NCBI GenBank assembly: GCA_001724265.1
Contig: MEDY01000179.1
Span: 1-58,705 of the forward strand
DNA: 58,705 bases
From: Rhizaria sp. SCN 62-66
Lineage: Eukaryota
Direction of reading: 5' to 3'
A program made the position numbers and the translations under genes. This document shows, piece after piece, positions 9,901 through 53,282 of the stretch (position 1 is the first letter of the stretch; each line of letters starts with the position of its first letter). The notes below the pieces were generated by a model. It searched no databases. It was not told the origin of the DNA and saw only the letters and a list, made by a program, of their open reading frames with translations.

Positions 9901-10056
9901 GCGGCGGCCAAAAACAAGCGCGTCACGTTCGCCGACGACCGCAGCGCCACTGCCGGCGCCGCGGGAGCCGCGGACCTGGCGAGCGCGGCCGCCGCGCTTG
10001 GCACCGCGCCGGCTGGCGACATTGACGCTGAGCTGGAGGAGCTGCTCAGTGAGTGA
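3904..10056 (+). CDS. Uncharacterised ~2003-aa type I membrane protein: signal peptide, Ala/Lys-rich linker, 7 Cys-bracketed beta-rich repeats, one TM helix, cytosolic tail; exons 3904-4864, 5006-10056
   Basis: N-terminus MRFPALVMLLLCILAISSTLVTA is signal-like; phase-1 intron 4865-5005 (GTACGT...CTAG) joins the two long ORFs; hydrophobic TLVLIAAVAIPLLLLLGYAALHF near 9460-9530; TGA stop. Confidence 0.8.
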
Positions 10057-24428: not shown

Positions 24429-24734
24429 GCCCAAACACTCCGGTGGACAGAGCCACGCTGTGGAGTAGTGAGGATAAAAAGGGGGGCTTCGGGACGGAGA
24501 CGAGGGTCGGTAAGACCGGGCCAAAGAGTGTGCTGTAGGAAAATAAAACAAACAGCGCGGGGGTTAATCGCACACTGAAGAAATATAAAAAGAGTAACAA
24601 TAATTTGGACGTTAGGGTAGTTGTAGCGCGTGGGGTGTAGCAAAAATGACGATAAGAAGCTTGAGCATTTCAGTGCCGGAATTCAGTGCTGTCCGCGCAC
24701 ACCGGGCCAGTCCTCGTCCACTACTGCAGGTGGG

Positions 24735-26454: not shown

Positions 26455-28431
26455 TCAACGGTGGTTCTGGAGACCCAGATGCTGCATGCGGGCCGGGTTG
26501 ATGAACAGCTTCTTGTTGCCGCCGCCAGTGCCGGTGGAGCCAGCGCTCGCGCTCGCGCCGCCATCGGCGCCAGCGCCAGCGCCAGCGCCAGCGCCAGCGC
26601 CAGCGCCAGCGCCGGCACCGGCGGCGGGGGCAGCAGCGCCAGCGTTCAGGCCCGGCGCACCGCCGTTGCTATTGTACATCGGCTGCTGCTGTTGAGGCGG
26701 GTAGCCCGGCCCCTGCGGCGGGCCCCAAGGACCCTGTTGCTGCGGCGGCGGATACTGCTGCTGCGGCGGGCCCCAGCGGCCGCCGGCCTGCGGCGGCGGG
26801 GCTTGGCCCCACTGCGCCTGCTGCTGCGGCGGCGGGCCCTGCGGCGGATACCCCGCTGCCCCGTACGGCGGCACGTTCGTGTTGTTGTTATTGAACATCA
26901 CGGGGGCGCGGCCCACGCCCACGGTCGCGCTGAGCGACGCCGCCACGGCCTGCGCCTGCGCCAGCGCCGCCGCGGCGCCCGCGTCCAGCCCGCCAGCGCC
27001 AGGGCCAGCGCCAGCGCCAGGGCCAGCAGCAGCGCCAGCAGCAGGAGCGCCAGTGCCAGGCGCAGCGCCGGCGGAGTAGAAGCCCTGCGACTGCTGCGGG
27101 GGCTGGCCGGGCAGTGGGGCGCCGGGGGCGGCGTTGCCCGCGGCTGCGGCAGCGGCGGCGGCGGCGGCGGCGCGGGCCTGGAAGAAGGCTGGCGGGGGCG
27201 GGGGCACACCGGGGATGAGGCCTGTGATAAGGGGGGGAAAGACATCATAAAGAGCAAGAGGAAAGTGGGAATAAGAATACATTATCAGTTTAAATGTGTG
27301 AACTTTTTAGTTCTGTGCCGTTTCATTGTTGTTTTAACGCCAAATATCGGGATATTGGTCGACATCACGTACCGGGCATCATGCCGCCGGGGCCGTGGGC
27401 CGCGAAGCCGCCCGGGCCGGGGGGGTACGGGCCGGCGGGGCCCGCGGGGCCGCCGGGGCCCATGAAGGGAGGCCCGCCGTGGGGGCCGCGCATCTGCATC
27501 TGCATCTGCATCTGCATGTGCGGCGGCATGTGCTGCATGTGCGGCGGGTACTGTTGTTGCTGCTGGGGAAACGCGGGGTTAAAGCCGCCGGGCGCGGCGC
27601 CCATAGGGCCGGGGCCGTGGCCGGGCCCGGGGGGGAAGCCGGGGCCCGCAGCGCCCATCGGACCGGGGCCGGAGACAGCGCTCGAAGCGCCAGCGCCAGC
27701 GCCAGCGCCAGTCGCGGCAGAGACAGCGGCGGAGTCAGCACCAGCGCCAGCAACACCAACGGGAGGACCAAAGCGGCTGGCGCGAGACTCGGAGCCGGCG
27801 CCGGGGCCACTGTTGTAGCCGCGGTTACGGTCGCTGCGGTCGCGGCCGCCCTCGGCGCCAGCGCCGGGGGGCGGGATGAGGCCGTCCTTGATGGCGCGCG
27901 CGCGGCCCGAGGCCTGCATCGCCGAATGCACGGAGGCCGCGGCGAGATCCTCGACGGCAGGGCCGCGGCCGGAGAGGATGACCTCGTTGCCCGGCAGTGT
28001 CTCGCCGGGAGTTGCGCTCTGACCCGTGGGCTTGCGGCGGTAAGCGCCGCTGGCGAGCTGCTGCTGCTGGCTTGCGCCGGGGCGGAACGCGGGCGGAACC
28101 AGCGGTACACCCAGAGTCTCGAGCTCGTCGCGCGGACGGGCGACGAAAGTCATCGGCGGCGCGTTCGGGATAAGCGTGTGCGTCTGCAGGAAGTGGATGT
28201 AGTAGTCACGGACGTTGTTCTGGTGAGGACGGCCGCAGGTGTGCGGGCGACGACCCGTGATCGAGTCATTCGTTGTGAAGGCTAAAGTAGATGCATATGG
28301 GTAGAATACAAGCAAGGCAGCGGTATAAGTGAGGCACAGGTACGAATATTAAGAGACAGATGAGTTCTTGGAAGTGAAAGCTGAGAGGAGGAAGACGTAC
28401 TATCGCAGTACCCACAGATGAACTTGGGCAT
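26455..28431 (-). CDS. SNRPC: U1 small nuclear ribonucleoprotein C, 568 aa with long Gly/Pro/Gln-rich tail; exons 28431-28401, 28281-27373, 27221-26455
   Basis: Spliced N-terminus MPKFICGYCDTFTTNDSITGRRPHTCGRPHQNNVRDYY has the U1C zinc finger (C6, C9, H24, H30). Introns 28400-28282 and 27372-27222 both start GTACGT and end AG; TGA stop. Confidence 0.9.
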
Positions 28432-33300: not shown

Positions 33301-35422
33301 CGGGCTCGCTTAAGCCGCAACTTCTCGTTGCGGTACGCGCGCGCCAGAGGCTGCGGCAGTCGCGCTGCAATCGCACACAGAAACCCGCAACTGCAGTTGT
33401 GATACTGGTGCTGTGGCGGTTGAAGTTGGGTTATTTGTTGCTCTAGCTGCTGCAGTAAGGGAAGTGGTGGGCCGCAGTCAAGCCGAGACCTCTTGACGTC
33501 TCCACTCGCACTCACCCCGTCATTGTCGCAACTCGCACTGATATTGCTGTTGATGTGCTCTGTCCCGGTGGCAATAGCAATGGTGCCCGGCTCATGCTTC
33601 ACCGTAATCTTGCTAATGCGGCGAGCGCCTACAGCGACGAGGATTTCACACTCGGAGTCTGAGTCAGAATCCAGGTCCGGGTCGAAATCATGCGCGCGGG
33701 TCTTGCTCTTGCCGCCTGTTCGGGCACTCGCACTCGATGAATTGTGGGAATCGCTGAAACTACGTTTGTTTCGTTTATCAGCGTCCACCCTTTGCCGCTC
33801 TTGCAGCTTCTCTTCGCAGTGGCAGTCTCGTCGCACACAGCACGTCAGCTCAACCCCGCAGTACGTGACCGTGGGCAACACCTCCATCATCTCGATTGAT
33901 GCCCCGGCGGCCCCTGTAGCCACGGCAGCGGAACCGCCGGACTTGGCCAAACCACCGGCTCCGAGAGCCCCGGCGGCCCCCGTGTTGCTTTGGAGCAGCG
34001 TCCCGAGCGGTACGTCAACGCTCCCGCTCTCGGCGGCGACGCAGCGCGTAACCTTGCCCCGCAGCGCGCGGACGTCAGCGCGCAGCGCAGCCGTGGTGGG
34101 CGTGAGCGACTGTGCGGCCCAGAGGCGCGGGCACGCGCCGGGGGCCCAGCGCGCGGGGGCCGGCGGACGCGCGGCGTCGTACAGCGTGCTCCGCAGGATG
34201 AAGTGCGCCAAGTGCGCGGCCAGGGGAGAGAATCTGTCCGCTCCGTGGCGCGCATCACCGGGGTGGGCGCTCGGAGCGGCTGAGTCAGACTTGCAACAGA
34301 AGCACGAGCACGCGCGGCGGGGGCCAGTGATGGCGTGCGCTTGCAGAGCGGGTATCGTGCTCGCAAGCTGGCGCGTCTCCGTAGTTGCCTCTGTGACAAC
34401 CCGCTGTGCCTGGGAGAAGCAATTCATGTTGTGAGCAGTATAGGTCGAGACTGCGCCGGCCGCCTCGCTTAGCAGCTGCTCAGTGTGCGCAATGCGATGT
34501 GCGGAAGCGGAAGAGTCCGACAGGCGGTGGTGAGCGCGAACACGCTCGCGCTCGAGCTTTGCTTCCGCCTAGGCATTGGCGTTCTGGCCAAAAACAAGCA
34601 AAAGCACAAACAAAGGCAAATTAAAAGAGTATGAGAGACTTAAAAAAGAAGCAAGAAACAAAAGAGCAAGAATTGTCCTTTATCCATAAAGAGTACCTTA
34701 ACATCTGTCTCAAACGCTTGGAGGTCCTCTCCTAGCGCAACCACAGCGTTGGTCAGCACGGTAAGCACGCGCATAACGTCACGCGGACACAAGCGGTGGC
34801 CGGGCTGGTCCGGACCGCTGCCCTTGGCCGGGAAGCAGCCGTGCGAGGCCGGCGCGCCGCAGTCGCGGCAATGCACGGCCAGCGGGGCCGCAAACCATTC
34901 GGCGTGCTCGGGACAGCACGGCGTCACGGGCACTGGAGTCGGCGCCGCAGCCGAGGCCGCAGCCGTTGGTGCGGGAGTCGCCAGCAGCCGCGCGGGCGCC
35001 GCAACCGATGCAGCAGCCGGTGTCGCAGCTGGTGCCGCGGCCGGCGCCGCGACCCGAGCCGCTGCCGGAGCCGTAGCCCGCGTCGCAGTACCAGCTCCAG
35101 TGGCAAGACTCGCAGCGGCTCGTGGGGTCGTCTTTGCAGCAGGCGTTGTGGCGGTGTTGTTGCGACTCGCGTTATTCGGGTTAGCAGGACTCGCAGAGGC
35201 TGCGACAGGAACGGGATGAAACTTGAATCGCTTGTTATTCGAGGTTTGGACCGCAACCCAATCGCGGCGGGCTGCGTGTGCATTGTTTGCAGCCGCAGTT
35301 TTCGGCGTGCTGGCACGAGCAGTTGACGGCGTTGATGTCGGATGAGGCCCTTGTCGTGATACACTCCCGCTGTCCGCAGGAAACCTTGACTTCAACTGGG
35401 TTTTTTGCCATGATGAGCTCAT
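30312..35422 (-). CDS. Hypothetical ~1665-aa Ser/Ala/Gln-rich protein with a Cys/His cluster (PHD-like fragment); exons 35422-34697, 34583-30312; in-frame TAG at 34571-34569
   Basis: Phase-0 intron 34696-34584 (GTACTC...pyrimidine tract...GCCAG) joins ORF 35422-34640 to the frame of ORF 34427-30312. Probable 5'UTR intron 35574-35425 (GTACGT...TTGCAG). TAA stop. Confidence 0.65.
31264..31329. repeat. (GAGCTG)11 coding microsatellite giving a poly-Ser tract on the minus strand
   Basis: Directly visible perfect hexamer array. Confidence 0.92.
34569..34571 (-). other. In-frame TAG (candidate sense codon, or alternative 3' splice site)
   Basis: After the strong acceptor at 34584 the frame reads AAC GCC AAT GCC TAG GCG GAA GCA AAG and stays open for more than 1400 codons. 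Confidence 0.6.
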
Positions 35423-36458
35423 ATCTGCAAATAAAAGGGTACATTAAAATAACAATAGTTGTACAATGTGGTGAGTGGAACCTTTCGACTGGCGTGAGAC
35501 AGATCTGCATATTACATGAGATGCACTCGGGCACCTGGCGGCAAGGCGAGAATGATGAGCATAGAGCAACGTACTGTGCGTTCCAAGTGCAGTAAGCTTC
35601 ACGGCGACTAAGCCGCGCGGGGCGTTAACTGTTACTGCGGACTTTCGTTTCTCAATGTGCGTTTGCGAAGCGCGCACAAAGACGGCAATACTCCGATTCA
35701 AGCAGAAGGGGGCTCACGGTGCGCAAAAGATCGCGGGACGCGCGTCGCACTGTGGTTTTAGCTCCAGTCGGTGTGCGTATGTGAAAAAGATACTATGAAA
35801 CAAAATTCAGATGGGCAAATGAGTATAAATGCTTTCTGGTCCGACCTTGCCCGTGAACAAGGGCTTAAAAGAGAAGCTAGGTCTGCGCGCAGTCACTCTG
35901 CAAACTCCTAAATTTGCAAGCCTAATACAACACAAATTGATCGTAAAACCATGCACCGTATGGCCAACAAATTTAAAAATATAACTTTTATATGTCAACT
36001 TAATGAATTGACGTGGCAAATCCTTTGTCGGCTGCGCCGGATGTTTTTCGAAATTCTCAGTTGACCATTGACCGCGCCACGAGTCACCACAAAAAGTACA
36101 AGCTTTCACAGTCTCAATCAAAACAAAGTGTAACGCACCATTATGTTGGCACTTTGACCTGAAACTGCTATCTCATGGCAGCCGGGATACTTATATATGT
36201 TCTCACACTATTTTTCTGCAAACTGAGTTTTGTTCGCACATATATCCCTCGGTAACCGCACAATGTTACGCGCGCATGACCGTGCCATAATCACCAGTCA
36301 CATCGTAAAGCGAAACTTTGCGTCAAACAAAGAAACTACATTAGATATGTTTATTAAAATACTACTATAACAGGATCTGATGACAAAAATAACTCTATAT
36401 ATTCCATAATTTATGCGTTGTCACAAGGACGCTGCTGTTACTGCGCGAAACTCCGTGC

Positions 36459-39400
36459 TCAGCAGCGCTCGAAGGCCTTGTACATCTGCCGCAGGTCTGC
36501 CACGAGGACGGCGCGGCCCGCGGCAGCGTCCTCAGCCGTGACAACACAGCCCGTGGCCCGCAGCGCCGGCACCACGCAGTCGCGCACCACGGCCTCCGCG
36601 CACGCCGCCAGCGCCGATGCCCCCAGCGATGATGCCAGCGCTGATCCGGCGGCGATGTCGCGGTCGGAGTCGTGCTTGGCTTCGCTCTCACCTGCAGCCT
36701 CGCCGCCGCGGGCCGCACTGTCACAGTTCTGCTGCTGCTGCGGCATGGGCAGCAGGGGCACGACGAAACTCGCGTCGCTGTAGCGGTGGTAGCGCGCGAG
36801 CGCGGCGATGACGAGCGCCAGACAGCGCTGCTCGCGCGCGTAGTCCGCGCACAGCCCCAGCGCCAGTAGCAGCCGCGGCAGCGCCGGCAGCGGCGGCGGA
36901 AACCGCGGGTGCAGGTGCGGCACCGTCAGCAGCCGCAGCCCGCGCCACGCATAGCTTGCGCGCCGCGTGTTGGCGCGCGCCTCGAGCCCGAACGTTAGGG
37001 AGAAAAGATCGGCCAGCATCGGCGCGTTGGCGAGCAGCGCCAGGCAGCCCGCGTCCGCCGCCGCCGCGCTCACTGCGCGCAGCAGCGGGCACACGGCGCG
37101 GTCGCCGTCGCGGCGGTGGTTAAGGCTGTCACTTTGAGGGAGACAGTGACAGAGCCAGCCGAAGCCAGCCGTGCTCTCGCTCTCGCCCTCGCTCGCACGA
37201 GCACCGCCGCTGCGGTCGGCAGGGCCGCTGGGCGCGTTGCTGAGCGGCACAGCCAGAGCGGCAAGTGCGGCGGGCAGCGGCCGGCGCAGGGGCCACGGGC
37301 CGCAGTAGGACGAGTCCTCCGCCGCGGCCAGGTGACCGTGGGCAGCCTCCGCGCGGCCGCGAGCAGCCTCGGCCGCCACAGAGGCGGAGAACAGCCGCGT
37401 CCGCTGCGCAATCCAGTGCCGGGCGCACAGCGCGGCCACCACCGCGGCCGCCGCGGTCGGCGCAGGCAGAGGCTCATTCGCACTCGCACTCGAAGAACTG
37501 TCACCGGCGTTGCTGCTGACCGCGTCCACCGCGTCCAACGGAGGCACCACGGGCGCCATCGCAGTGCTGAGCGCCGCAGGGCCGGCGCTGTGGCTGTGGC
37601 TGGTGGCGGCGGACGAGGCCAGGGCCGAGATAAACACAGGCACGGCCGCGGCGGCCCCGTAGGCTGCGGCCACGGCAGCGTCGGCAGCAGCCGTCGCCGC
37701 TGCTGTCGACGACTCGCGTTCACCGCCATCGTCGCTGGCGAGATCAGCCGTGGCAGGAGCGCTGGCGCTGGCGTCGCCAGGGAGCTTCACGAGGCCGAGC
37801 ACGAGCGACAGCACGAGGGTTAGCACGCGCGGCGCCCCTGCCTCCTTGCTATTGAGCGCGGCGGCCATCGTGGCGCCCACAGCGGCGGCCTCGCCGTCCG
37901 CGTTGCCGGCCACCGAGGCCACGGCGGCCGCCGCGGTGATGGCGGCTGGCGCGGCGGCGGCGGCGGCGGCCAGCGCGGCGGTCGCGGCAGCCAGCGCGCC
38001 GTGCACCCAGCCGCTCACGACGGCTACGCCGCCGCAGCCGCCGTCAGCGCCGCGCAGCAGCACGGCGCTCGGGCCGGCAGGGCGGAGCTGTTGTTGCTGC
38101 TGTCGAAACGGGGGCAGCATGGCCGCGAGCAGAAGCGGCCGCACGGCCACTCCAGCGTCAGTGCCGACAACGGCCACAGCGCCGCCCGCAGTGCTCTTGC
38201 GACTCGCAGGAGAGCTTGCGCTCGCACTTGGGCAAGCGCCAGTGACAGCGGCTGCGGCGGCAGCGGCGGCGGCGGCCACGGCAGCCGCACTGCTGCTGCT
38301 CCTGCTGCCTATGCCGACCGCGCTCACGTCCACCGCATCGCTGTCGCTGCCGTTCCCGTCGGCGCCGTCGCTGCCTTTGCTCTTGCTGCCCGCGGACGCG
38401 TCCACGCGAGCCGCGAGCCAAAGGCGCGGGAGGTTGCCGACGCGCAGGAGCAGCTGCTGCTGCGCCCAGCGCTCGGTGACGTCGGGCAGCGCGAGCAGCA
38501 GCAGCGCCGTGCCGCGCTGCACGAGCGCGAGCCCGCGCGCGGGCAGCCCCACGAACACGGCGCCCGCCAGGGTTACGCCGCCGGCCGCCTGGAGCGCGGC
38601 CGCCGCAGACGCCAGCGCCGCAGACGCGCCCGCAGCCGCGTCCGCACAAGCGTTGTCTGCGCCGTCGCTGTGGACCGCGCTGTGGGCCGCGCTGGCGTCG
38701 AGCGGGGGCAGGCCGGCGGCGCGGCGCAGCGTCTGCAGCGAGCGCAGCGCAAGCGGCGCCCACGCGCGGGGCTCCTGCAGCGCCGCAGCCATCTGCCGCG
38801 ACCACTGCGGCGACCACGCGGACTGCGACTCCGACTCTGACTGTGATTGAGCGGGCGCGGAAAGGGGCTGAGCGCGAAAGGGCTCCGCAACCGTCGCCAC
38901 AGAGGCAGTCGCGGCAGCACTGGCGCTGCCGCTGCCACCGCCCGCGCTGCTACCGCTGTCGCGGCTGCCGATCTCGCGGTGTTTGCTGACGCGGTCCTTG
39001 CCGGCCGCCGGCGCCGCCTCGTCCTCGTCGTCGTCGGCGCCGTCGCCGTCGCCGGTGTCGGCGTAGCGGCCGCCCGCAGCGGCACCGGCGCCGGCGCCGG
39101 CAGCGGGATAACCGCGAGCAGAGGGGGCGCCCTGGCTCTGGCTCCGGCTTTGATTCAGCGTGTCGGGGTGACTCTGGCTACTCGCGAGGTCGACCGCAGC
39201 CCCACTATCATTCGCACTGCGGCTGAAGCTGCTGCCGCTGCCGCTGCTCTTGGCGCTGCTTGCGGGCGCCTTGCGGGTGAGAAAACCCATGAGCGAGGAC
39301 TGCGACGCGTCCGTACGGACCGTCACACTGTCGTTACGCGCCGCGGCAGCGGCAGGCGCGGCCGCAACACCTGCACCAACACTCCCGCCAACACTGGCCC

Positions 39401-41939
39401 TGGCACTGACGTTAGGAGGTGAGGCGGCGTCAGCGCCGCCGGCAGCGGTGCGAGAGCGTTTGACGCGAGCCCTGCCCTCGCTTTCGGCCTCCTCCTCCTC
39501 CTCCTCCTCCTCCTCCTCCAGGCCCCGACGTGACCGCGACTGCCCTAGCGCAGCAGCAGCGTTGTCGTCGTCGTCGTTGTTGTCGCCGTCGTCATTAACA
39601 GCGATGACGGCGCGGCGACTGCTCTTCGCACTGGCGCTGCTGCTGCTACTGCTGCTGTTGCTGCCACTGCTCAGACTCGAGAGCCCCCAGCCGCCCTTAC
39701 TCTTCGCACTCGCATTGCTGCTATGAGCGCCGGCGCCCGGCAGCGCGGCGAGCGCGTCGCCGGCGGGCGGGAGCACGGGCAGCGTGAGCAGCGTCTGCGT
39801 GGCGAAGGTGCGCGAGGCCGCTGTGGCCGCCAGCGCGCGCTCCACCGCCGCCGCCACCGTCGAGATCACCTGCGCGAGGAAAACGAACAATGAAAGAGAG
39901 AATATAATGTGAGTTTACTCAAATACAGGTGCAACCGAGTAATAAAATATGAATTTGATTGCAATATATCCCTGTTTTTTTGTTGACCCCGACGCACCTC
40001 CTCCTGGTGGAGCATCTGAACCTCCTGCTTGGTGGGGTGCACGTTGACGTCGACGGCGCTGCCCGGCAGTGAGAGCGCCAGGAAGACCCAGGGCACGCTC
40101 TTGCGCGGGAGGTGCGCCGCGAAGACGGCCTCGACGGCGCGCTTGAGCGGCCCGCAGCTCACCAGCCGGCTGTTGATGAACAGCACGAAGTTGAGAGACC
40201 CGCTGACTCCCACGCCGCCGCCGCCGCCGCCGCCGCTGCCGCCACCGCCGCTACTGCTGCTGCTGGCGCTACGGGCGGCGCGGGGCGCGGACATAGACGC
40301 CGAGAGCGACGTGCCGCCGCTGACGCCGCTGGTGCCGCCGCTTGCGCTGTGACTGCCGGAGATGTCGCTCGAGTCGCCCGCACCACGCCCGCTGCCGGCG
40401 CCGGGGCCGTGGCTGTAGTTGGGGCTCGAGACCAGCCCGGTCACGGCCAGACCCAGCGCCGCCGCCGTCGCGGCCAGTGCGCCGCCACTCCCACTGTTCC
40501 TGTCGCGACCGCTGCTTTGACTGGGGCTGGGGGCCGGCGAGAGCGTGACGTCGATGAGCTCGCGCGCGAGGGCCGGGCCCCAAACGTGTGCCACCACGGC
40601 GCGGCGCGCGCGGGCGTCCGCCTCGGCCTCTACCGCAGCCGCCGCGGCCTCTGTCGCCGACACCGCGGCCGCTCGAGACCGACCGGAGCGAGAGCCGGAG
40701 TCGTCGGAGTCCGCGCTAGTGCAGTTGTCGCCACCGTTGTCGCTGCCGATGTCGTCGTTGATGTGATGCGCGTCGCCGGCAGCGACAAGCGCGGCCGCCG
40801 TGGCTGCCGCGTTCACGCTGCTCCCGTCACTGCTACTCGCCGAGCTGCTGCTGTTGGCGGCTGCATTCGCGATGCCTGTATTCGCAGCAGCAGCGGCGGC
40901 GCCGGCGGTGGCCAGGTCCGCGCCGGGCGCGCCCTTGCGGCGGAGCACAACGGCGCAGCGAGGGAACATGAGCGCGTACGCGGCGGCGACGTCGAGGCAG
41001 CGCCGGTGCTCCTCGTGCGGTGACCGCAGCGCCGCGCGGCGGGCCGGCACGTTGAAGAAGAAGGACGCCGCCGAGACCGTGGTCCCGAACGGCAGCGCGG
41101 CCGGCCGCGGCGCCGCCGACGAGGCCCACAGCGCCGCGCTGGCTGCCGCCGCGCTTTCCTCGCCGGTCAGCCGCGCCCCCGCCGCAGCGCCAGCGCCTGC
41201 AGTGGCTGCAGTGAGGTTGGGCGGCTGCCACGAGTCGGGGTCGACCAGGCGGCCGTCGGCGAAGGCCGCCGCGTAGCCGTGCGCAGGCACTTCGGGCGCA
41301 CCGCCGGGCACCGCGGGCCGCAGGGCGCGGGCGCGCGTGCGTACGGTCACCCTGGGGACGGGGTGTTCGCAAAGAGAGAGAAAGTCGCCGATATGACATG
41401 TGGTGAGATACGTGTTATTGTTATGACAGCAGAGTGACAGGAGAGCGAATTGGCACAGTGGTGAAATAAGATATACAGAACATAGAATTAACTTGTAACG
41501 CGAAGTTTTGGCGGATATCCTGTGCGTTCCCCGCGTACCTGGCAACGTGCGTGAGCGAGGCGAGCGCCTCCCCGCGGAAGCCAAAGGTGGCGATGCGGCC
41601 GGAGCTGAGGTCCGCGAACGAGCGCAGCTTCGACGTCGCAAAGCGCTCGCACAGCAGCGGCAGGTCCGCGGGCGCGATGCCCGTGCCGTCGTCGGCGATC
41701 TGCATCAGCGCGAGGCCGCCTTCGTGGAGCGTGACGGTGACGCGGGACGCGCGCGCGTCGAGCGCGTTCTCGAGCAGCTCCTTGAGCGCGTTGGCGGGCC
41801 TGTGAATCACCTCGCCCGCCGCGATGCGGTTCACCACGTCCGGTGACAGCCGCTAAATCGGCGCGGGCGGCGCGGCGAACGATGCCGGCACGGGCATGGC
41901 GGCGGTGGACGCAGACACAGATGCGAGCTCGTGAGACAT
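36459..41939 (-). CDS. MLH1: DNA mismatch repair protein MLH1, ~1721 aa with large low-complexity insertions; exons 41939(or 41897)-41539, 41351-39998, 39869-36459; in-frame TAG at 41855-41853
   Basis: [75 protein letters not shown] and the MLH1-specific C-terminus YKAFERC then TGA. Introns 41538-41352 (GTACGC) and 39997-39870 (GTGCGT). Confidence 0.95.
41853..41855 (-). other. In-frame TAG inside the conserved MLH1 N-terminal motif
   Basis: ATG...CCG ATT TAG CGG CTG TCA CCG GAC GTG GTG AAC CGC ATC = [12 protein letters not shown]. Confidence 0.88.
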
Positions 41940-43153
41940 GACCTGTGCGGACACACTTGCGGCTGCACAGCACGCGGTATACTCTGATCGCTAGAGTTGA
42001 CGTGTGACAAGTGCGTGTAAAAACGCGTGTTAAGGGTTACTTGCCGAGGGTTAATTGTAAGAGAGGTGATTATACGGTGGCAGATAGAAGAATGTGAGTT
42101 GGGAGGTGAGCTCGAAATAGCGTCCGCCAGATTGTCAACTAAGTCAGATATTTCACTACAATACATGCGACTTAGAGTATAATAATTTAGGAGTATAACA
42201 AAATGTTCGCGTTAGTACTATTAACGGCAAATATAACGACTGAGAACGGATTATAGTGACGCTATCAGTGGGTTTACAGTGCTTTCGAGAGCGCCATGAT
42301 GCTCGGATTGTTTACGGATTTGGCGCATCGAACAAGGCAAAACGTCATAGAACACATGCATAACGTCTGTCTGTAGATAAACAAAGTGTAGTTACAGCTA
42401 TGCCCGCTCGTTTAAATGAAGAATCTAAGTTATAGTAGACCTTAACCCTGGTCTATGACAAGAAATAGTATCAAAATCGTTTGCCGACGGCTGAAACGGT
42501 CCTAGCTAGACCAGTCGGTGGAGGCCTTCCTCTAAAAATACACAAAACCGATTTTTGTTCGACAGTAAGACGTCGTAAGCGCGCGTCATTTTGGTGGCCA
42601 GGGGTATTGTTGAGTTTTTTAGTATTTTTCTTTTTTTTATTGCGCCACGCTGTGTCTGTTTTGCCCCGCACGCGCCTCCTGTAAGGACCGACGCACCCCA
42701 TCTCTCTTCCACTGCTGGCCCGCGTCCCACTCGCTCGCTGCAGCCGAAATAAGCAGATATAACTGGCTGACAAAGACCCCAGTTTTATTTCTGCCTTTTA
42801 CATCTGGTGTGCTTGCTATAACCATTAGGGAAGTTGTATGATCGAGGTCTCGCTTGTCTTTTCACTCACCCACTCACCCCCTTCTTGTGTCGCTCTTCTC
42901 TCTCGCCCGCCGCTCTCTCCTACATGGCATCTGACGCAGCCGACCGCTTTCCCGCACAGCGCGCACTGGCCCGCGCTCCCCTTGTCCTGACCCGTCCCAG
43001 CGCTGGCTCCCTCCAGGAGTGCCAGTCCCTGCCGGCGCCGACCCGCTGCCGCTGCCGCTGCCGCCGTCAGTGCCGCGTGCGCTGCGCTGTGCCGTGCCAG
43101 TCCTTCCTTCCCTGCTCTCCTGAGCCTCGTCTCGCTGCGGACCCTTGCGCCCG

Positions 43154-44085
43154 ATGCCGCGCGGCCGCAGCAACAACAACAGCAGCAACAGCAATCACAA
43201 CAAGGCTGCTGCTGTGAAGCCTACTAAGCCCGCTGCCGCGAGCAGCAGCAACAGCAACAGCAACAGCAGCAGTAGCTGCACGGATTACAAGGCCAACGAC
43301 CGCGGCATGCCCGACTCGGCCGCGCTAACAGGCGCTAGCGTCGCCGCCGCCGCGAGCGTCATCGTCGCCAATGACAGCGCCCCCGCCGTCCCCCATAGTA
43401 ACTCCAGTAACACCGAACAGAGTCACACCGAGCCCGCTCCCGCTCCTGCTCCTGCTGCCACGACGACGACGCCGGTGCCCGCCGTTGCGCCTGCTGGGTT
43501 TTTCCCCCTATGGCCGCTCGACGACGACACGGTCACGCTCCCGCTGCTGCCCTCTCTGCTCCCGCTGCCGCCGCCCACCGCGACTGCGCCAGCCGCGACT
43601 GCGGCTGACTCTGTGGACGCGAGCGCCGCGGCCAACAGCAGTGCGAGGGCCGCTGCGGGCAGTCGCTACTGCTACACACCGGGCGCTGGCGACAACGCGG
43701 GCGGAAACGCCAGCGCTGTCAACGCCTGCCCTGTGAACGCCGGTGCTGCGAAAGCAAGCTGCAGCTCTGAGGCCAATGACCCAAGCCTCCGCTCCCGTTC
43801 CAATTCGGCCTCGGCTGCTGCGGCCGCGACAGGGACGACCCCCGCCGCCACGGCCGCCGCGATGGCCCTGGGCAGCGCCACGCCGCAACACCTGCCGCAG
43901 TCGCGCTCGCTGTCGCTGTCTCAGTCGTTGTCGCAGGCACAGTCTATGGTTCAGTCGGTGTTGCAGTCGCCGTCGCCGTCGATGTCGCAGTCGCCACAGG
44001 AGCAGCTGCAACTGCTTGAGCAGCAGCTGCAGCAGCAGCAACAGCAGCAGCTGCTGCTGCACCAGCAGATCGCAATGCTCCAGCT

Positions 44086-44124
<39 letters not shown>

Positions 44125-44992
44125 ACAACAGTCTTTCAGCGCAGGAGACGACGGCGCCAGCAATGGCAACGGCAGCGGCAGCGGGAGAGTGACTCTGCCG
44201 CAGCCGCTGCCGCTGCCGCAACCCCAGACTCAGCCCCAGTCGGCTCCGTCCCCGTCTCAGCCGGAGACGTACTCGCAGCAGCAGCAACGGCTGTTCATGC
44301 TCGCCAGCCCCGGCGCGCCCCGCTGCTCCGGCGGCTTGAGCAGCGACGGCGCTCGTGCCAGCGCCGGCGCCGGCGCCAGTGGGACACCTCCCAGTGAGAG
44401 CGCCTCCGCGACGAGTGCGACTACGCCTGCAGCCGTGGCCGGGGCGGTTGTGCCCGCGAACGGCGCGGACTCGGTCTCTGTGGCGCAGCTGCTGCTCCTG
44501 CTGCAGCACCAGCAGCTGCAGATCCTTGCCATGCAACAGCAACAACAACAACAACAACAACAACAGCAGCAGCAACAACAGCAGCTGTACAACAACGCCG
44601 CCAACCTTGCCACATTCACCCTCGCCGGCCCCGGCCCCGGGCCCGGCGCCGGCGCAGTCTCCGTCCCCGTCGCAGCGGCGGCTGGCGGCACGCTCTCGCT
44701 GCCGGCCACGCCGCTGCTGCTGCCGCGGTCCCCGGCCTTCGCGCCGGCCTTCGCGCCGGCCTTCGCGCCCGGCTCCGCCTCGGTCCCCGCCGTTGCACTT
44801 GCAGTCCCCGGTGCGATCCCCGGCGCAGTCCCGGTCGCGGGGGGCGACACGGTCTCGGTGGCGGCGTCGGTGGACGTGGCCGACGCCTCGGTCTCGGCCG
44901 CGCTGGCCTCGGCGGCGGTCGCGGCGGCGTCCGCGGGCGTGCCGGTCACTGTCACGCTGCCGATCACCATCTCGCCCGTCGCACCTGTCGCC

Positions 44993-45023
<31 letters not shown>

Positions 45024-45866
45024 GCAACAGCAACAGCAATAATGGCGGCTCGAACGGCGTTACTGGCGGCTACAATGGTCGCGGCAGCATGAGCAGCTGC
45101 TGCAGTCTCGGCAGCGCGCGCGCCAGCCTCAGCGCAGGCGCCAACGACGCAGCTGCTTTTGTGCCCAACAACAACAACAACAACACCAACAACGGGATCA
45201 ACAGCAGCAACAGCACTGACAACACCGCTGCGACGGCGACGCCCGTGAGTGCGGCGGCGGCTGCGGCGCCGACGCCCGGCAGCGCGAGCGCGATCGTGAG
45301 CGCGGGCGCCGGCATCACCGTCTCCGACATGGGCGCGGCGCTGTCCAGCGCGGCCGCCGCCGCCGTCTCGGGGCCCGTGGGACCGCAGGGCGCGGTCGAC
45401 GCCGCGGGCTTGTGGGTCGGGCTCAACCCGCCCCCCGAGCACCGCAGCGCGAACCCGGCCAAGGTACGGCCTGTTCTCCGAACAAGAAGATGATATTGTG
45501 GTTAATTTAATTTACCTTATGCGTATGTATGAATTTTATTTATTCTTTTCCATATCTCACCCATAACGTTCTTATATCTCTCATCAATACTTATCATGCC
45601 CCGGCCCACAGAATGTCTTCACGACGGCCGAGATCGCGCGGCACAACCACCCCGACGACTGCTGGTTGCACGCGCACGGGCGCGTCTACGATGTTACGGC
45701 CTACCTGCCGTACCACCCCGCGGGCGCGCGCACGATCGCGCGCTTCGCGGGCACCGACGCGGCCGTGCACTTCGACTTCCACCCTAAGTCGGCGCGCTCG
45801 GTCTGGGCGCAGTGCGAGATCGGCCGCGTGCAGGGCGCCGAGTGCACCGGCTGCGTTGTGATGTGA
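43154..45866 (+). CDS. Cytochrome b5 heme-binding-domain protein, 854 aa, long low-complexity N-terminus and C-terminal CaaX; exons 43154-45463, 45612-45866
   Basis: Exon 2 reads FTTAEIARHNHPDDCWLHAHGRVYDVTAYLPYHPAG...AGTDAAVHFDFH...ECTGCVVM then TGA. Phase-0 intron 45464-45611 (GTACGG...ACAG). Start codon less certain. Confidence 0.85.
44030..45040 (+). repeat. Coding trinucleotide tracts: CAG/CAA poly-Gln (~44030-44130, ~44534-44585) and AAC poly-Asn (~44993-45040)
   Basis: Directly visible repeats within the cytochrome b5-domain gene. Confidence 0.85.
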
Positions 45867-46817
45867 GCGCTGCGATGAGCGACGCCGGGGTGCTTCGTAA
45901 TGACGCACACTGTGCGTTGGGTCAAGAGAAGCAAGAATATGAGTACTGTTTGTATGGCATGGTGAGAACATAACATGCCTTACGACTCATACTCTTCAGA
46001 TTTACGACTGGCACGAAGTAAGTCCGATGTACAGCGCTTAGATATGACTGTGCGCACACGCGTCATAGCAGTCGTTGTTGCAGGCTCACTTCCAGCTCGT
46101 CGCAGCTCCATTGCTTTGTCGTTTTCGTTGTTGTGCTTTCATTGTTTAAACCAGTTGTGTACGTCCTTAAAATAAGAACCACTGCAATAGTTATAGTCAT
46201 TTGTACAGTGCTGTGCATTTTCAGAAGTCAGTCTGTCCTATTTTAAGTTTTTTTTGTATCGTTTCATTTTCCTTTCTTATTTAACGCTGTGACAGCATTG
46301 TCTGCTTGACAGCATTGTCCGTTTCATGAGTGTCGCTCACTGCGCGACTATTGCGTAGAGTATCATATCACGAAACGTAATCTCATTATATTGAAATGTT
46401 ATGATAAGTAAATAGAGTTACAATTTGATAAAAGTGTGTTTTATTGTTATATTTGTTGAAATGCTTGAGCGAATGCACGATTTTTGGAAATAAAATGAAC
46501 TGTGTAACTGAGTCTGTGCGCGCCCGAACAGCGTAATGGGTCATCCCCTCTCCCTCTCGTCTTGGCGCAGTGTGTGCGTGTGTGTGCGTGAGCTTGGAGT
46601 GCATGCTGTGTGTCGTGTGTGCATGGTGCACTCAAGTGTGTCGGTCTGCGCACTCGTGAGTGAGCATCCGTGTGTTCGCGAGTCTGTGCAATGACCTTGC
46701 AGAAGCATGAGCAGCAGCGTCAGACACGCGAGCACTGGCACTGTCGCGCCTAAGAGAGCATCTGTAGCCAGCATACAGCCTGACTGGCCGTAAGTTGTGT
46801 TGCTGTCGCGAGCAAAC

Positions 46818-47666
46818 TTAGAGCTCCTCAGCATCGGCCTCGACCTCGGCCTCGACCTCGGCCTCGGCCTCAAGGTCGAGCTCAGCGTCAGCCTCAGCCT
46901 CAGCGTCGGCCTCGGCGTCGGCCTCGGCGTCAGCGTCAAGGTAGAGCTCGGCGTCGAGCTCAGAGTCAAGCTCAGCGTCGGCCTCAGCCTCAGCCTCAGT
47001 CTCGAGGAAGGACGCCTCGGCCTCAGCCTCAGTCTCCGCCTCAGCCTCGGCGTCGGCCTCGGTCTCCTGCTCAGATTCCTGCGTGGCCTCGGTCTCGGTC
47101 TCGGCCTCAGCGTCGGCCTCGCCTTCCTCCTCTTGTTCCTGCTCGCCCTCCTCCTCAGCCTCAGCGTCGGCGTCGGCGTCGGCGTCGGCGTCAGCGTCGG
47201 CGTCGGACTCGACGAAGGTGACGGCAGTGGACTTGGAGGTGGGCGCCGACGCGGTGCCGGGCGAGACCTGGCCGTTGGCGCCGACGGACGGCAGCTGCTC
47301 CTCGGTCAGGATGCCGCCGTACATGCAGTCCTTGGCGTTGGTGTTATAGACCTGGGCGCACTCCATCGGCATCGGCAGGATGGCAGGGCCCTTGGCCTTG
47401 GGGGGGAAGACGCACTTGGTCATGTAGTGCAGCATCACATTGTGGCAGTAGGGCGTCAGCTGCATCAGCGGGGACGTCTCGGCGGCGGCCTCAGACGTGG
47501 ACAGAAGCTCCAGAAACGACGGGTTCTCCGCGAGCCACTGCTGCGAGTGGGCGAGCGCGTCGGTGAGCTCTTGGTGGAGCTGGGCATCGACCTCCGTCGC
47601 GCGCACCTGGGCGGCCAGCGCGAGCGCGGCCAACACTAAAAACGTCACAAAGCTCTGAAAGCGCAT
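46818..47666 (-). CDS. Secreted, highly acidic protein (282 aa): signal peptide, 4-Cys domain, Glu/Asp/Ala-repeat tail
   Basis: MRFQSFVTFLVLAALALAAQVRA signal-like start; YCHN...KC...EC...DC core; (EA/DA)n tail encoded by GCCGAG/GCTGAG/GCCGAC-like hexamers; TAA stop. Confidence 0.8.
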   Translation of the reverse strand: MRFQSFVTFLVLAALALAAQVRATEVDAQLHQELTDALAHSQQWLAENPSFLELLSTSEAAAETSPLMQLTPYCHNVMLHYMTKCVFPPKAKGPAILPMPMECAQVYNTNAKDCMYGGILTEEQLPSVGANGQVSPGTASAPTSKSTAVTFVESDADADADADADADAEAEEEGEQEQEEEGEADAEAETETEATQESEQETEADAEAEAETEAEAEASFLETEAEAEADAELDSELDAELYLDADAEADAEADAEAEADAELDLEAEAEVEAEVEADAEEL

Positions 47667-48292
47667 TGGATACTCTACCTCAGCGAGATAGAACGTCGGC
47701 AACGGTGACGAAACAGAAAATCCTCACCACTTTTACTCCTCGTCAAAGGAGCAACGATTGGACTCAAACCAAAATCACTTCCTTTTTTCGGTCCAGCCAG
47801 GTCAGCCACCAGCGAACGATTTCGATTCAGAAGTGCATGCTCACTTTGAAAGGCGTGTGTGCATTCTATTTTCCGTCTGTGCATTTAATTTCACTCTATG
47901 GTGTTGGAAGTGCTATTTTATAAATGGATATATTGGTAGATTTATAACAGTGTATGGTTGACCACCTCCCTCACTGGGTCTTCGAGCGCCCACTTTTGCA
48001 CTTGCCCGACCTCACATCGACTCACTCTTGTTCGTGTCCTCTGCTCCTGTCCTCCTTCGTTCCTTATAGCACACTTACCAGCTCACTTAGGCGTGCGATA
48101 CGTCGCTGTAATAGTCACTAGAGCGGGCGAACGCCTCTGTAACTCCTCCTGCATCCGCCAGCGTCAGTTGCATTAAGACCCTACCGGCTGACAGCTCGCG
48201 AGAGCACTCGCACTCAACACAACACAGCGCAGCGCAGCTCAGCGCATTTTGGCAAGGTACCAGCAGCCGTTGCTTTTACCCCCGCTCCCGCC

Positions 48293-51200
48293 ATGTCGTA
48301 CGACGAAGGGGAGGGCTTCCCCACCCTCGACGACATCCGCGCGTACGTCCTTGAACTATGCAACACAAAGATTCGCATTTTCTTGTTGCTACACACATAT
48401 TTGGCGCTAACTCAGCGAGACAACTACCCTTAGACTTATCTCTTAATTCGACAAAACCTCACCTAATATTATTTACTTGTATGCCAATTATTTTTCCGTA
48501 TCGCGTATATCCCTCTCGAATTCTCTCTTGGCACCCGCAGCGACGCGATCGAGTTCATCTCGCAGCAGTTCACGACGCCCGAGAGCCTGTGGGCCGTGGG
48601 CTCGGTGCGCCGCTCGTGCGAGCGCCGCCGCGACCAGCTCGCCGCGCTGTTGCGCTCCGCCGTGCGCTCGCACTCCGAGGAGGTGCGCCTGGGCATTGAG
48701 ACCGTCCAGCGCGCCCGCGCCTCGCTTCAGGTACGGACTGAGGGTCGCCTATGATGTCGTTTCGTTTCAAAACAACCCCATCGCATGTTCTCGATAACTC
48801 GCTAATATCTCTTGATATATCACTTCGAACTCACAATACCTCATTTCTCGTTTGTTGTTTGTTGTTTGTTGACTGACTGTGACTGTGTCCCCAGGCGCTG
48901 CGCGGGCAATTCAGCCGCATCGACTCGCTGGCCGCGCGCGCCTCGGCCCTGGTCGGCGTCGGCGCGGCGCCCGGCGCGCAGGCCGTCTCGGTGGCGCACG
49001 ACAACCTGGACGCGTCGACCCGCATGCTCGCGGACATCAAGTCGCTGCGCACCACGGCCGCGGAGCTGCTCGCGCTGCTCGATGACGACGACCACGCAGT
49101 CAAGTTCGTCTACAAGAAGTGCCGCGGGCTCCTCGCGCTGCGCGAGCGCGCGGGCGCGGGCGCGCTGGCCGCCGCGGGCGGCCCGGGCGGTGGCGGCGGC
49201 GGCACCGTCGCGGTCACGTCGTCGCTAACGGCGTCCCTCGACGCGACCTTCTTCGTCGTCTACGAGGTCGTGGCGGAGCTGGAGAACCGGCTGTGGGAGA
49301 ACCTGCGCGACGGGCCGATGCTGGCCGACTCGGAGCCTGCGGTGCTGGTGCGCACCGCGGAAGTCATCGAGATGGACGACCGCTCCGCCACGCCGCTCTT
49401 CATGCCCGGTACGGACAGACGCCTATCACTGCATATACGCGCTTCTTATTTCAATGCGTTTGAACTAAAATTTTGTGAAAATTGTGTATAAAATTTCTTG
49501 ACTAGTAAATTTTTATTGAGTGAACTGTCCGTAATTTCTGTTTGTTTATGTTTATGTTAATCGAAATCTATACTCATTTGCGGCAACTTTTCGTCTTTTG
49601 TCCCCCTGTTTTGCTTTCCTTTCTCCCCGACCCAGGCCACGGCAAAGCCACGGCTGAGGTGTACCAGGCCGCGCACGCGGAGCGCATGCGCCAGGCCGCC
49701 GCCGCCGCCGCCGCCGCCGCCGCTGAGCGCGCCGCCAACTCCTCCTACGGCAAGTCCGGCGGCGGCAGCGGCGGCGGCTACAACTACAGCGCGGGCAGCG
49801 GCTTTGCGCGGCCGCAGCAGGTGCGCGCCTTCGCGTCGATGCGCGAGCGGTGTCTGTACGCGATCGAGATGGCGGTCGCGGCACAGTACCGGCCGCTGAC
49901 GCTGACGCTCGAGGCGCGTGCGGCCGAGAAGGCCGAGGCGGAGGCCCGCGTGCGCGCGCGCAAAGAGGCCGCCGAGCGGCGCGCTCGCGAGGACGCCGAG
50001 GCCGAGGCGCGCCGCGTCAAGGAGGAGGAGGAGGCGCGCGTGCGGCGCGCCGAGGAGGAGAAGGTGGCGGCGCGGCGCGCGCGCGAGGAGGTGGCGGAGC
50101 GGCAGCGCGCGGCCAAGCGGCGCAACAAGGAGCGCGCGCGGCAGGAGCGGGCGGCCGAGCGCGAGCGCAAGCGGGCCTAGAAGGAGCGCAAGCGCGCCGC
50201 CAAGCTGGCCAAGAAGAGCCGCGCCGGCGCCGGGGCGCGGGGGCGCGCGCGCTGGGATGACGACGACGACGACGATGATGACGATGATGATGATGATGAC
50301 GACGACGACGACGAGGAAGACGAGGACGACGAGACTGAGACTGAGTCCGAGACCGAGTCTAAGTCCGAGCTCACGCCCACTGACGAGGACGACGACGAGG
50401 ATGACGACGACGGCAACAACGGTTTCGGCAAGGGCAAGGCCAAGACCATGGCTGGTGCCAAGAAGAAGAGTCCTTGGGGCGACGACAGCGACGATGACGA
50501 CGACGATGGCACCAAGGACGACGACGCTGACGGCAGTGCCAGCGGCGGCGGCGGCGGCGGCTGGGGTGCCAAGAAGGGCGGCGCCAAGGGCGGCGCCAAG
50601 GCGAACCCCTGGGGCAAGAAGAAGGGCCAGGACGCCGTGGTGAACTCCGACGATGAGGACGCCAACGGCAGCGGCAGCGCGCGCGGCCACAGCGACGACG
50701 ACGATGACGACAATGACGGCAGCGACAGAGACGCGGGCAAAGCGGCGGGCGGCTTCGGCAAAGGCAAAGGCGGCTTTGGCAAAGGCAAGGCCAAGGCCAA
50801 GAAGGGCAGCGACGACGACGATGACGACGACAAGAGCGGGGGCGACGACGAGGGCGGCGGCTTCGGCGGCTTCGGCAAGAAGGGCGGCGCCAAGAAGAAG
50901 GCCAAGGGCAGCGACGACGACGGCGACGGCAGCGACAGCGCCAAGGGCGAGGGCAGCGCCGGTGGTAGTGACAGCGACGGCGACGGCGACAACGCCTTCA
51001 CCAAGAAGGGCGCCAAGGGGGGCAAGGCAGCGGGCGCCAAGAAGGACGACTCGGACGCGGACGAGCGCCGCGAGCGCGCCGTGACGCGCGCGCTCGAGGC
51101 CAAGCGCGAGGCCGAGGCGCGTAAGGACCCGATCGTGAAGCTGCTCGAGGAGGTCTCAGTCGTGCTGGAGGACCTCACGCTGGTCGAGAACAAGATGGCG

Positions 51201-53282
51201 CGGTGCTTCCCGCCCGAGTACGAGCTGCCGGCGCACTATGCACGGCTGCACCGCAAGTGGGTGCGCACAGTCGCCATGGTGCATTTCGCGGACCCCAGCA
51301 CGCTCAACAAGGCCAACTCGCTCGAGTGCGTCAAGTTCCTCGAGAAGATGCTCACCGTCACGCGCACCATGGGCGGCGGCCGCGGCGGCAGCGCGGGTGG
51401 CGGCGGCGCCAGCAGCGGGCAGGCGGCGGCAGAGGCGGCGGACGAGGAGTTTTTCGACTCGCTGATGATGCAGGTACTGGAGGTGTATGTGGACCACGCG
51501 CGCGGCACCATCACGTCGCTGGTGACCAACATCCTCGCGCGCCAGGAGGAGGCCAAGGTGCTCGAGGATCACGAAGGCCGCTGCATCACCACCATCCCGC
51601 AGGACCTCTTCACCGTCATGCTGCAGCAGACGGACCTCAACAAGCGCGTCGGGCTGCGCGGCCGCGCTATGTTCCGCTTTGGCACGCTCTTCGTCGACTT
51701 GCTCACCGGCTTCCAGAACACCACCACGACCTTCTGCAACAGCGCGGCACGCCGGCCGGGCGCTGAGGGCGTGCATTTCGGCGCGCGCCTGCTGCCTAAG
51801 CAGCTCAAGGACTTCATCGCCATGGTCAACGACTGCGGCGCACTGGCCGACTCGACCAAGCAGCTCGAGAGCACTGTACTCGCGCTCGTCGAGGACGTCG
51901 CCGGCGGCATGCGCCTCGCCAGCGGCCGCTCGCTCGCAGCCGCTGACGCAGGCTCCGGCGCGGCCGCGGACGGCGCCGGCGGCGCGGCGGGCGCGGGGGC
52001 GGGCAAGAAAGGTGCCACCGCTGCTGCCGGCAAGGGCGGCAAGCCTGACCCCAAGGCCAAGGGCGGCGCGGCGGGCGGCGACGGCAAGGGCGGAGCGAGC
52101 GCTGAGTCGCCGTTCGGCGCGGACGTGAGCCCCGACTCGCCGCTGCTGCTGTCGCACACGCTGCGGCGCTCCTTCGCGGCCTGCGCGGCCGAGTTCGCGA
52201 CGGTGGGGTCGGCCGCGCTGGACGTGGTGGCGATGCTCGCTGTACAGCGCCTGCTGCCGCTGGTCGAGCGCCTCTTCCTGCCCGAGGGCACCATCGCCTC
52301 GGGCGGGCCCGGCGCGGGCGCGGCCATGGCCAAGCTGTCGAACGAGCTGCACTCGCTGCTCGTCGAGATCGACGAGGGCCTCGAGGACGAGGCACGCGTC
52401 GACCTCATCGCGCGCACGCTCGTCGCCGCCGTCGTCGTGCGCTACGTCGCGCGGCTCGGCGAGGCTGCCGTCAAGGGCGGCGGCGTCACCGCGGGGCCTG
52501 CGCTCGCGGACACGATCACCAACGACGCGCAGACGCTGCAGAAGGCACTGGTGCAGTTCGATGACCTGCTGCCGCCCGCGCGCATCAAGGTGTACCTGGA
52601 CAAGCTCTTCGCGCTGCAGGACCTGCTCGAGGCCGACCACGGCTTCATCTCGCTGCACTTCTCCAAGATTTGCGCGGCCTTCCCCGCGCCCGGCGACGTC
52701 ACCACGGTCGTGTCCAACCTGCTCATGCTGCGCACCGACCTCAGCAAGAGTCAGCGCAAGGAGCTGCTCGGCGACCTCAAGCTCCAGATCGAGCTGGCGG
52801 CGCTCGATGCGGGCGCGCCGCCGCCGGCGCCCGCCGCGGCGCCCGCGGATGAGGACGACGACGGCGGGAGCGGCGACAACGACGACGGCTCGAACCGTTC
52901 CGACAACGGCAACGACTCCGCCTCGGGCTCCGACTCGGACCGGCCCAAGAAGGCCAAGGCCGACAAGGGTAAGGGTGGCGCCAAGGCCGCCGCCGCCGCC
53001 GCCGCCGCCGCTGCCACCGCTGCCGTGAACGTGTCTGAGGAGTTCGAGGCTGCGCAGCGCGTGTTGGTGCGGCTGGCGACCCTGCCGACAGCGCAGCTGC
53101 CCGCGGTACCCGGCGATGACGCGTCGCTGGGCATCTGGGGCCGTCTCAAGAACAAGCTCGGCAAGGGCAGCGGCAAGCCCACCGCGCCCGCCGACGGCGC
53201 CGCCGCGGCCACGCCCGCCAAGCCCGCCGCGCCGGCTAAGGACGACGAGCCCGCGGTGGACCTGGCCGACTTCCTCGACTAA
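48293..53282 (+). CDS. SEC6: Exocyst complex component Sec6/EXOC3-like, ~1466 aa; exons 48293-48342, 48541-48730, 48895-49408, 49636-53282; in-frame TAG at 50178-50180
   Basis: N-terminal pattern (F..PESL...QLAALLRSAVRSHSEEVRLGIE), PAVLVRTAEVIE, EDLTLVENKMARCFPPEY, TTIPQDLF, FIAMVND and LLMLRTDLSKSQRK resemble Sec6 from memory. Three GTACG-AG introns keep frame; TAA stop. Confidence 0.82.
50178..50180 (+). other. In-frame TAG within Sec6 exon 4
   Basis: GAG CGC AAG CGG GCC TAG AAG GAG CGC AAG CGC = ERKRA*KERKR; the same frame continues without a stop to 53282. Confidence 0.88.

Follow-up and report, generated by a model that had tools for sequence, protein, structure and literature searches.

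Candidate sense decoding of UAG, with UAA and UGA as stops, in a 58.7-kb contig assigned to Rhizaria

The stretch analyzed here, referred to throughout as the window, is the whole of contig MEDY01000179.1 of Rhizaria sp. SCN 62-66 (58,705 nucleotides; GenBank assembly GCA_001724265.1), and the system in question is the genetic code of its source, specifically whether UAG is read as an amino acid. The window is eukaryotic DNA. Its exons are GC-rich, with a GC content at third codon positions (GC3) of about 0.8-1.0, and its introns and spacers are short and AT-rich. Pfam matches bore out the gene list of the initial annotation, an earlier note on the same DNA: RabGGTB, U1C, a FYVE/ankyrin protein, MLH1, cytochrome b5, Sec6, UBA1, PGK and RPS16. 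That annotation had described three otherwise intact genes, each with a single in-frame TAG, and all three TAGs were found at the coordinates and in the frames that it gave. The description holds for MLH1 and Sec6; the case of the third, unnamed gene (gene 1) is weaker, as its TAG may be an intron acceptor.

TAG codons in MLH1, Sec6 and gene 1

The three TAGs and the exons or intron around them are as follows.

41853-41855, minus strand: in-frame TAG of MLH1 (codon 29)
41539-41939, minus strand: MLH1 exon 1, from ATG 41939 to donor GT 41538-41537 (HATPase_c, E-value 6e-10)
36459-41351, minus strand: MLH1 exons 2 and 3 (intron 2 ends at 39870), with DNA_mis_repair and Mlh1_C matches, ending in FERC and then TGA
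50178-50180, plus strand: in-frame TAG of Sec6, within a lineage-specific charged insertion (ERKRA-TAG-KERKRAAK)
48883-49410, plus strand: upstream exon of Sec6, with the N-terminal region and the start of the Sec6 domain
49636-53282, plus strand: last exon of Sec6, from acceptor AG 49634-49635 to TAA 53280-53282
34569-34571, minus strand: TAG of gene 1, 15 nucleotides (nt) after the first acceptor, either an in-frame codon (NANA-TAG-AEAK) or itself the acceptor
34584-34696, minus strand: gene 1 intron, from donor GT 34696-34695 to the proximal acceptor AG 34585-34584 (CCAG)

MLH1 was recognized by its HATPase_c, DNA_mis_repair and Mlh1_C domains. GC3 is high from ATG 41939 on and the sequence upstream of this ATG is AT-rich; beyond the TAG, about 1,740 codons are open with no other stop. 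The residue encoded just before the TAG is isoleucine. When 44 of 80 metagenome MLH1/MutL loci (those matching from query residue 1 or 2) were read at this position, 39 had isoleucine, four had valine and one was shifted one codon later. Isoleucine was also kept in 117 of 118 database homologues, these being the readable ones among 119 exon-sized fragments. The metagenome loci nearest to the window in this region read RPKPIVRLSPDVV and RILQLPQDVV, PIVRLSPDVV is found among the nearest homologues, and one homologue is identical to the window over the 14 residues that follow the TAG position. As judged from these alignments, conserved residues of the N-terminal part of MLH1 flank the TAG on both sides. 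Past the TAG, no in-frame ATG occurs until after the ELLENALDA ATPase motif. An intron with its end at this TAG is very unlikely: it would be 66 nt long, GC-rich and devoid of a T-rich tract, and its removal would delete the conserved P-I residues.

MLH1 is typically about 750 codons in length, and the gene of the window (36459-41939) has about 1,900. Very large low-complexity insertions are carried by conserved proteins of the window (MLH1 and Sec6). A public copy of the organism's MLH1 exon (protein P0124; 41541-41852, minus strand) has 138 residues and starts after the TAG (MVNRIAAGE), an example of the truncation of genes when they are called with the standard code.

In Sec6, GC3 is 0.83-1.0 in one frame from 49614 to past 50900, across the TAG. 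The Pfam Sec6 match, over profile positions 86-347, lies wholly downstream of the TAG; Pfam gave no Sec6 match upstream of it, and a word-indexed homologue search with the upstream exon gave no match. An exhaustive phmmer search with the same exon returned 27 non-self matches, and in each of the ten that were tested (the longest among the best 15) the matched N-terminal region is followed by a Sec6 domain. Comparison with the Sec6 protein of Lapot gusevi placed the parts of the gene in order:

Upstream exon: L. gusevi residues 113-238 (E-value 4e-22)
Start of the last exon: residues 257-274 (E-value 0.023)
TAG: between residues 274 and 304
Downstream part 1: residues 304-543 (E-value 2e-14)
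Downstream part 2: residues 601-726 (E-value 1e-12)

Because the gene is colinear with that of L. gusevi on both sides of the TAG, the TAG falls within a charged, acidic, lineage-specific insertion of one Sec6 gene. The same colinear homology rules out two genes, one ending at the 50178-50180 TAG and a Sec6 gene starting downstream. The insertion is about 420 residues long, is rich in Lys, Arg, Glu, Asp and Gly, and lies between profile positions of about 85 and 86. A tandem 21-nt repeat (50163-50204, plus strand; ERKRA-TAG-K followed by ERKRAAK) contains the TAG in its first unit. As the second unit has GCC (Ala), three changes from TAG, the repeat does not reveal the residue.

At gene 1, both possible acceptors are in frame: the proximal one keeps the TAG in the exon (NANA-TAG-AEAK), and the second removes it. 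Twelve reference acceptors, picked by open reading frame (ORF) or homology continuity, were read in the window. Five of these are TAG. In 11 of the 12, at least 42 nt separate the acceptor from the AG before it; the twelfth is a GAGTAG tandem. The proximal acceptor of gene 1 has a 55-nt AG-free zone, while the TAG acceptor has an AG only 15 nt upstream. Because this AG-free zone fits the introns of the organism, the proximal acceptor is favored, and the gene 1 TAG is therefore a probable in-frame codon. Donors read in the window mostly begin with GTAC or GTGC. The RPS16 intron ends GAGTAG (2555-2560, plus strand); if the GAG served as acceptor, its exon would open with TAG, and the AAG that begins a conserved stretch would come three bases later.

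Gene ends, codon counts and independent runs

Fifteen gene ends were read in the window: eight are TAA, seven are TGA and none is TAG. The initial annotation had counted 14 ends, with eight TAA, six TGA and no TAG; the TAA count and the absence of TAG stand, and addition of a Q-rich ORF brings the total to 15 with seven TGA.

TAA 193-195: RPS15
TAA 3191-3193: RPS16
TAA 10614-10616: giant ORF
TAA 29824-29826: FYVE gene
TAA 30312-30314: gene 1
TAA 46818-46820: acidic protein
TAA 53280-53282: Sec6
TAA 53591-53593, minus strand: UBA1 (E1_UFD profile 1-93 of 93, stopping 6 residues before the TAA)
TGA 484-486: RabGGTB
TGA 10054-10056: ORF 3679-10056
TGA 27365-27367: U1C
TGA 36459-36461, minus strand: MLH1 (last Mlh1_C profile position at the last residue; the protein ends FERC)
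TGA 45491-45493: Q-rich ORF
TGA 45864-45866: cytochrome b5
TGA 57478-57480: PGK

Four of these ends (MLH1, UBA1, RabGGTB and PGK) are confirmed by Pfam profiles that run to their final position close to the stop, and those of RPS15 and RPS16 fit the canonical C-termini of these proteins. ORFs 3679-4917 and 4918-10056 (plus strand) are one gene, with an intron that runs from donor GT 4865-4866 to a TAG acceptor ending at 5005. As the TAA at 4915-4917 between these same-frame ORFs is intronic, it counts neither as a gene end nor as an in-frame stop. The sample is small, being 15 gene ends of one 58.7-kb window and not genome-wide; if TAG made up 20-33% of stops, the probability of finding none among 15 would be about 0.035 to 0.0025.

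Among 13,553 confident codons, TAG occurs in frame twice and TAA and TGA do not occur. Out of frame, the same coding sequences contain 92 TAG, 106 TAA and 420 TGA. TAG is absent from ten of the 13 confident coding segments and from the 4,594 codons counted in the giant ORF, in agreement with the earlier description of TAG as very rare and missing from that ORF. The giant ORF (10614-24563, minus strand) spans 4,649 codons as one ORF, uninterrupted by any in-frame TAA, TAG or TGA. A codon log-odds scan for stops within coding sequence failed to separate sense from antisense frames.

The initial annotation had cautioned that the TAGs could be base errors. Contigs from a run of another study (X3) cover 33515-37921 and 41130-41924, including the gene 1 and MLH1 TAGs, with no differences from the window. 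A further run (X4) represents a variant strain that is about 0.6% divergent. Its contig over 41412-42260 has five differences, all listed, none of them at the MLH1 TAG. Its contig over 34168-35470 has eight, and none of the seven that are listed is at the gene 1 TAG; this strain very probably has TAG at the gene 1 site as well. Based on these independent runs, base errors are excluded for the gene 1 and MLH1 TAGs, and the caution is retained for Sec6. Forty of the 71 strain differences are listed, and these were read as 30 non-coding and 10 coding. The differences at 39939 and 39972 were placed in MLH1 intron 2. All three listed differences in MLH1 exon 3 are synonymous, a hint of purifying selection downstream of the TAG. 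Run X5, from the same study as X4 and sharing its variants, is labelled as a poly(A) metatranscriptome. Its contigs extend over introns (49548, and 41512-41538, the latter being 27 nt of MLH1 intron 1) and over the spacer at 42754-42791. This run holds DNA or unspliced RNA of the organism.

Source organism

Near-identical DNA was seen in bioreactor, wastewater and activated-sludge runs from six studies (2015-2025). UBA1 has no close named relative by BLASTP: its top match, an unnamed sequence, is 66% identical, and the best named matches are from Paulinella chromatophora (47%) and Nonionella stella (43%). In a quick IQ-TREE analysis of 33 UBA1 sequences, the window protein and its unnamed sister grouped with Nonionella and Paulinella (Shimodaira-Hasegawa-like approximate likelihood ratio test 100), nested with Paulinella (99). 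The Nonionella/Paulinella clade was apart from stramenopiles, green and red algae, a haptophyte, fungi and animals. The UBA1 tree puts the organism in Rhizaria with Paulinella, and it resolves only to that level, not to membership of the sainouroids. For the N-terminus of Sec6, L. gusevi, a rhizarian, supplied the best named relative. We read the source as an uncultured rhizarian, probably a cercozoan.

A scan of genome contigs with the UBA1 alignment found no further contig of the organism; its sole return was an unrelated eukaryotic fragment, 52% identical to the window UBA1. This fragment is encoded by a 1.5-kb contig (L001:32-1540) in a metagenome-assembled genome of the Fimbriimonadaceae, and is probably eukaryotic contamination of a bacterial bin. 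A scan of metagenome contigs with MLH1 exon 1 gave the 80 loci mentioned above, the best of them 72% identical and none from the organism's own species. A dispersed repeat through which more loci might be reached was sought in the window, and only low-complexity coding repeats were found.

Probable decoding of UAG and comparison with known systems

Within the window, TAG lies inside two conserved genes, none of the gene ends is TAG, and TAA and TGA are never in frame. Because conserved colinear homology flanks the TAG in both MLH1 and Sec6, readthrough of UAG is needed to make either protein. Three points are jointly hard to explain under the standard code: this need for readthrough in two essential genes, the persistence of the TAGs and the lack of TAG among the 15 ends. 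We therefore favor, with a probability of about 0.7, the reading that UAG is decoded as an amino acid and is no longer a terminator, while UAA and UGA still terminate. The initial annotation had proposed that UAG is reassigned or read through and that only UAA and UGA stop translation; this is partly supported, by MLH1, Sec6 and the gene ends of this one window.

Under this reading, UAG would no longer be an efficient terminator and would be decoded by a tRNA with anticodon CUA or through strong near-cognate suppression, and its recognition by eRF1 would be weakened. Having been lost as a stop, it would now be coming back through mutation with a sense meaning. Its great rarity (2-3 per about 13,500 codons) fits an assignment that is young or little used. 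We tentatively suggest, at somewhat less than even odds, that the organism is a natural codon-capture intermediate that arose independently of the rhizarian exLh (see below), in which UAG was purged from gene ends and is re-entering at about 0.02% of codons, with UAA and UGA still terminating. If so, no nuclear stop-to-sense reassignment would so far have been caught at an earlier stage. A second rhizarian case, with TAG almost unused, would also inform the question of how reassignments begin, namely whether the codon is lost before its capture or goes through a period of ambiguity.

The identity of the residue had been given as probably Gln. The MLH1 TAG is the only alignable position of the three, and it is variable in homologues: the 118 database homologues have R (38), Q (24), K (17), V (14), E (10) or L (8), and the 30 best have Q (11), R (8), E (5) or V (3). 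The nearest metagenome locus (L002) has CTG at this position. Gln is mildly favored, and Leu, which has a precedent in Cercozoa, is a further candidate. With a variable position in MLH1 and two unalignable sites, the Gln assignment is a mild preference.

Several observations weigh against sense decoding of UAG. First, the evidence comes to two firm in-frame TAGs and a probable third, all from one 58.7-kb window, and no piece covering the Sec6 TAG is among the listed pieces of the independent runs. Second, regular sense use of UAG across many genes was not seen in the window. The rarest ordinary codons are ATA (12), TTA (15) and AGA (18), so that TAG, with two, is about six times rarer, which is odd for an established sense codon. 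Third, that the in-frame stop is always TAG is weak evidence alone, because codon counts predict TAG as the outcome of about 65% of random nonsense mutations in coding sequence of such high GC3. Fourth, because run X5 covers introns and spacer, it shows neither splicing nor lack of editing and provides no valid RNA evidence. Fifth, ARAGORN and Rfam found no tRNA genes in the window (nor other RNA families), and the eRF1 gene lies outside it and was not seen. Sixth, in the GC-rich metagenome loci L002-L004, which have the most similar MLH1, TAGs occur near ORF ends and appear to be ordinary stops. These relatives, together with L010 and others, were considered as support and dropped for this reason. 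Because L002-L004 appear to end genes with TAG, any code change would be lineage-restricted.

The alternative that survives best, although we regard it as improbable, keeps the standard code and treats each case as local. The gene 1 TAG would be a 3' splice site, MLH1 and Sec6 would be made through programmed or leaky readthrough, reinitiation or near-cognate initiation, and the lack of TAG at gene ends would be due to chance or codon bias. The TAG at 34571-34569 can act as an in-frame acceptor, as TAG does in five of the 12 reference introns, and few gene ends were sampled. For restarted translation, a CTG codon is found 4 nt after the MLH1 TAG and an ATG 83 codons after the Sec6 TAG; however, the P-x-P-I just upstream of the MLH1 TAG is conserved as coding sequence, and a product restarted downstream in Sec6 would lack the Sec6-homologous part upstream of the TAG. 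Two special cases among about 15 genes would far exceed known rates of programmed readthrough, and chance leaves the absence of TAG from 15 ends with the low probabilities given above (about 0.035 to 0.0025 at usual TAG shares).

Less probable again, and in our view quite unlikely, is that the TAGs are nonsense alleles that followed a loss of mismatch repair. Knockout of MLH1 would have created a mutator with C-to-T and G-to-A nonsense mutations, and MLH1 and Sec6 would be recent pseudogenes or tolerated truncations. That MLH1 itself is among the affected genes is in keeping with such a history, as are the share of TAG among expected nonsense mutations (about 65%) and the fact that TAG is far rarer than any sense codon. 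Against this account stands the persistence of the TAGs in runs of 2015-2025 from different studies and of the MLH1 TAG in the strain with about 0.6% divergence. Furthermore, there is no frameshift, TAA or TGA across the 13,553 codons, and the three listed MLH1 exon 3 differences are all synonymous. Sec6 is normally essential, and the lack of TAG terminators would be left unexplained.

Removal of the TAGs in RNA, by editing (such as U to C or A to I) or as the ends of unusual small GC-rich introns, is very unlikely: all three TAGs end in an acceptor-like YAG and a GT is found at a codon boundary 66 nt upstream of the MLH1 TAG, but these introns would be GC-rich, tens of nt in length and without a T-rich tract, in contrast to the 12 AT-rich reference introns with their long AG-free zones, the one in MLH1 would cost the conserved P-I, and no nuclear mRNA editing of this kind is known from Rhizaria, with no search aimed at it.

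Returning to sense decoding of UAG with UAA and UGA as stops, one ciliate reportedly uses UAA and UAG to encode different amino acids. Nuclear codes in which UAG has changed and UAA remains a stop are known from few lineages: exLh, Iotanema and some phyllopharyngean ciliates. A literature search turned up no earlier description of a code of this kind in a wastewater rhizarian, a result that does not extend to supplementary files, possibly with taxon lists. In phyllopharyngean ciliates, UAG alone has been reassigned (to Leu and to Gln), as shown from metagenome assemblies in which suppressor tRNAs were found (2024, PMC11687900). The likeness to the window would be that UAG alone is reassigned, UAA is fixed as a stop and the case came from metagenome mining; the difference is that the ciliates make wide use of UAG as a sense codon and their tRNA genes are known, in contrast to the near-absence of TAG and the lack of tRNA genes in the window. 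Iotanema spirale (Fornicata) has UAG as Gln in regular use and UAA as a stop, and a T32G change of eRF1 has been proposed (PMC5304391). It resembles the present case in the uncoupling of UAG from UAA and in its residue, Gln, which is the one mildly favored here, and differs in belonging to an unrelated supergroup and in its regular use of UAG.

The closest known system is exLh (Sainouroidea, Cercozoa), in which UAG encodes Leu and UAA is the main stop, with 384 in-frame UAG codons in 71 genes, mostly at conserved Leu positions (Panek et al. 2017, PMC5304391). That count, set against 2-3 in about 13,500 codons here, adds to the points that weigh against sense decoding in the window. Two further differences are that no TAG was found at a Leu-conserved position in the window and that TGA is also a frequent stop (seven of 15). 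NCBI translation table 15 (UAG = Gln) would be the formal code for a Gln residue with TAA and TGA kept as stops. In practical terms, gene callers that use the standard code truncate the genes of this organism. The organism and exLh (PMC5304391) would be alike in that the genome is nuclear and rhizarian, UAG alone has changed, UAA is kept as a stop and in-frame UAG codons are found in conserved genes; if sense decoding is correct, the organism would be the second rhizarian case after exLh, set apart by the near-absence of the codon.

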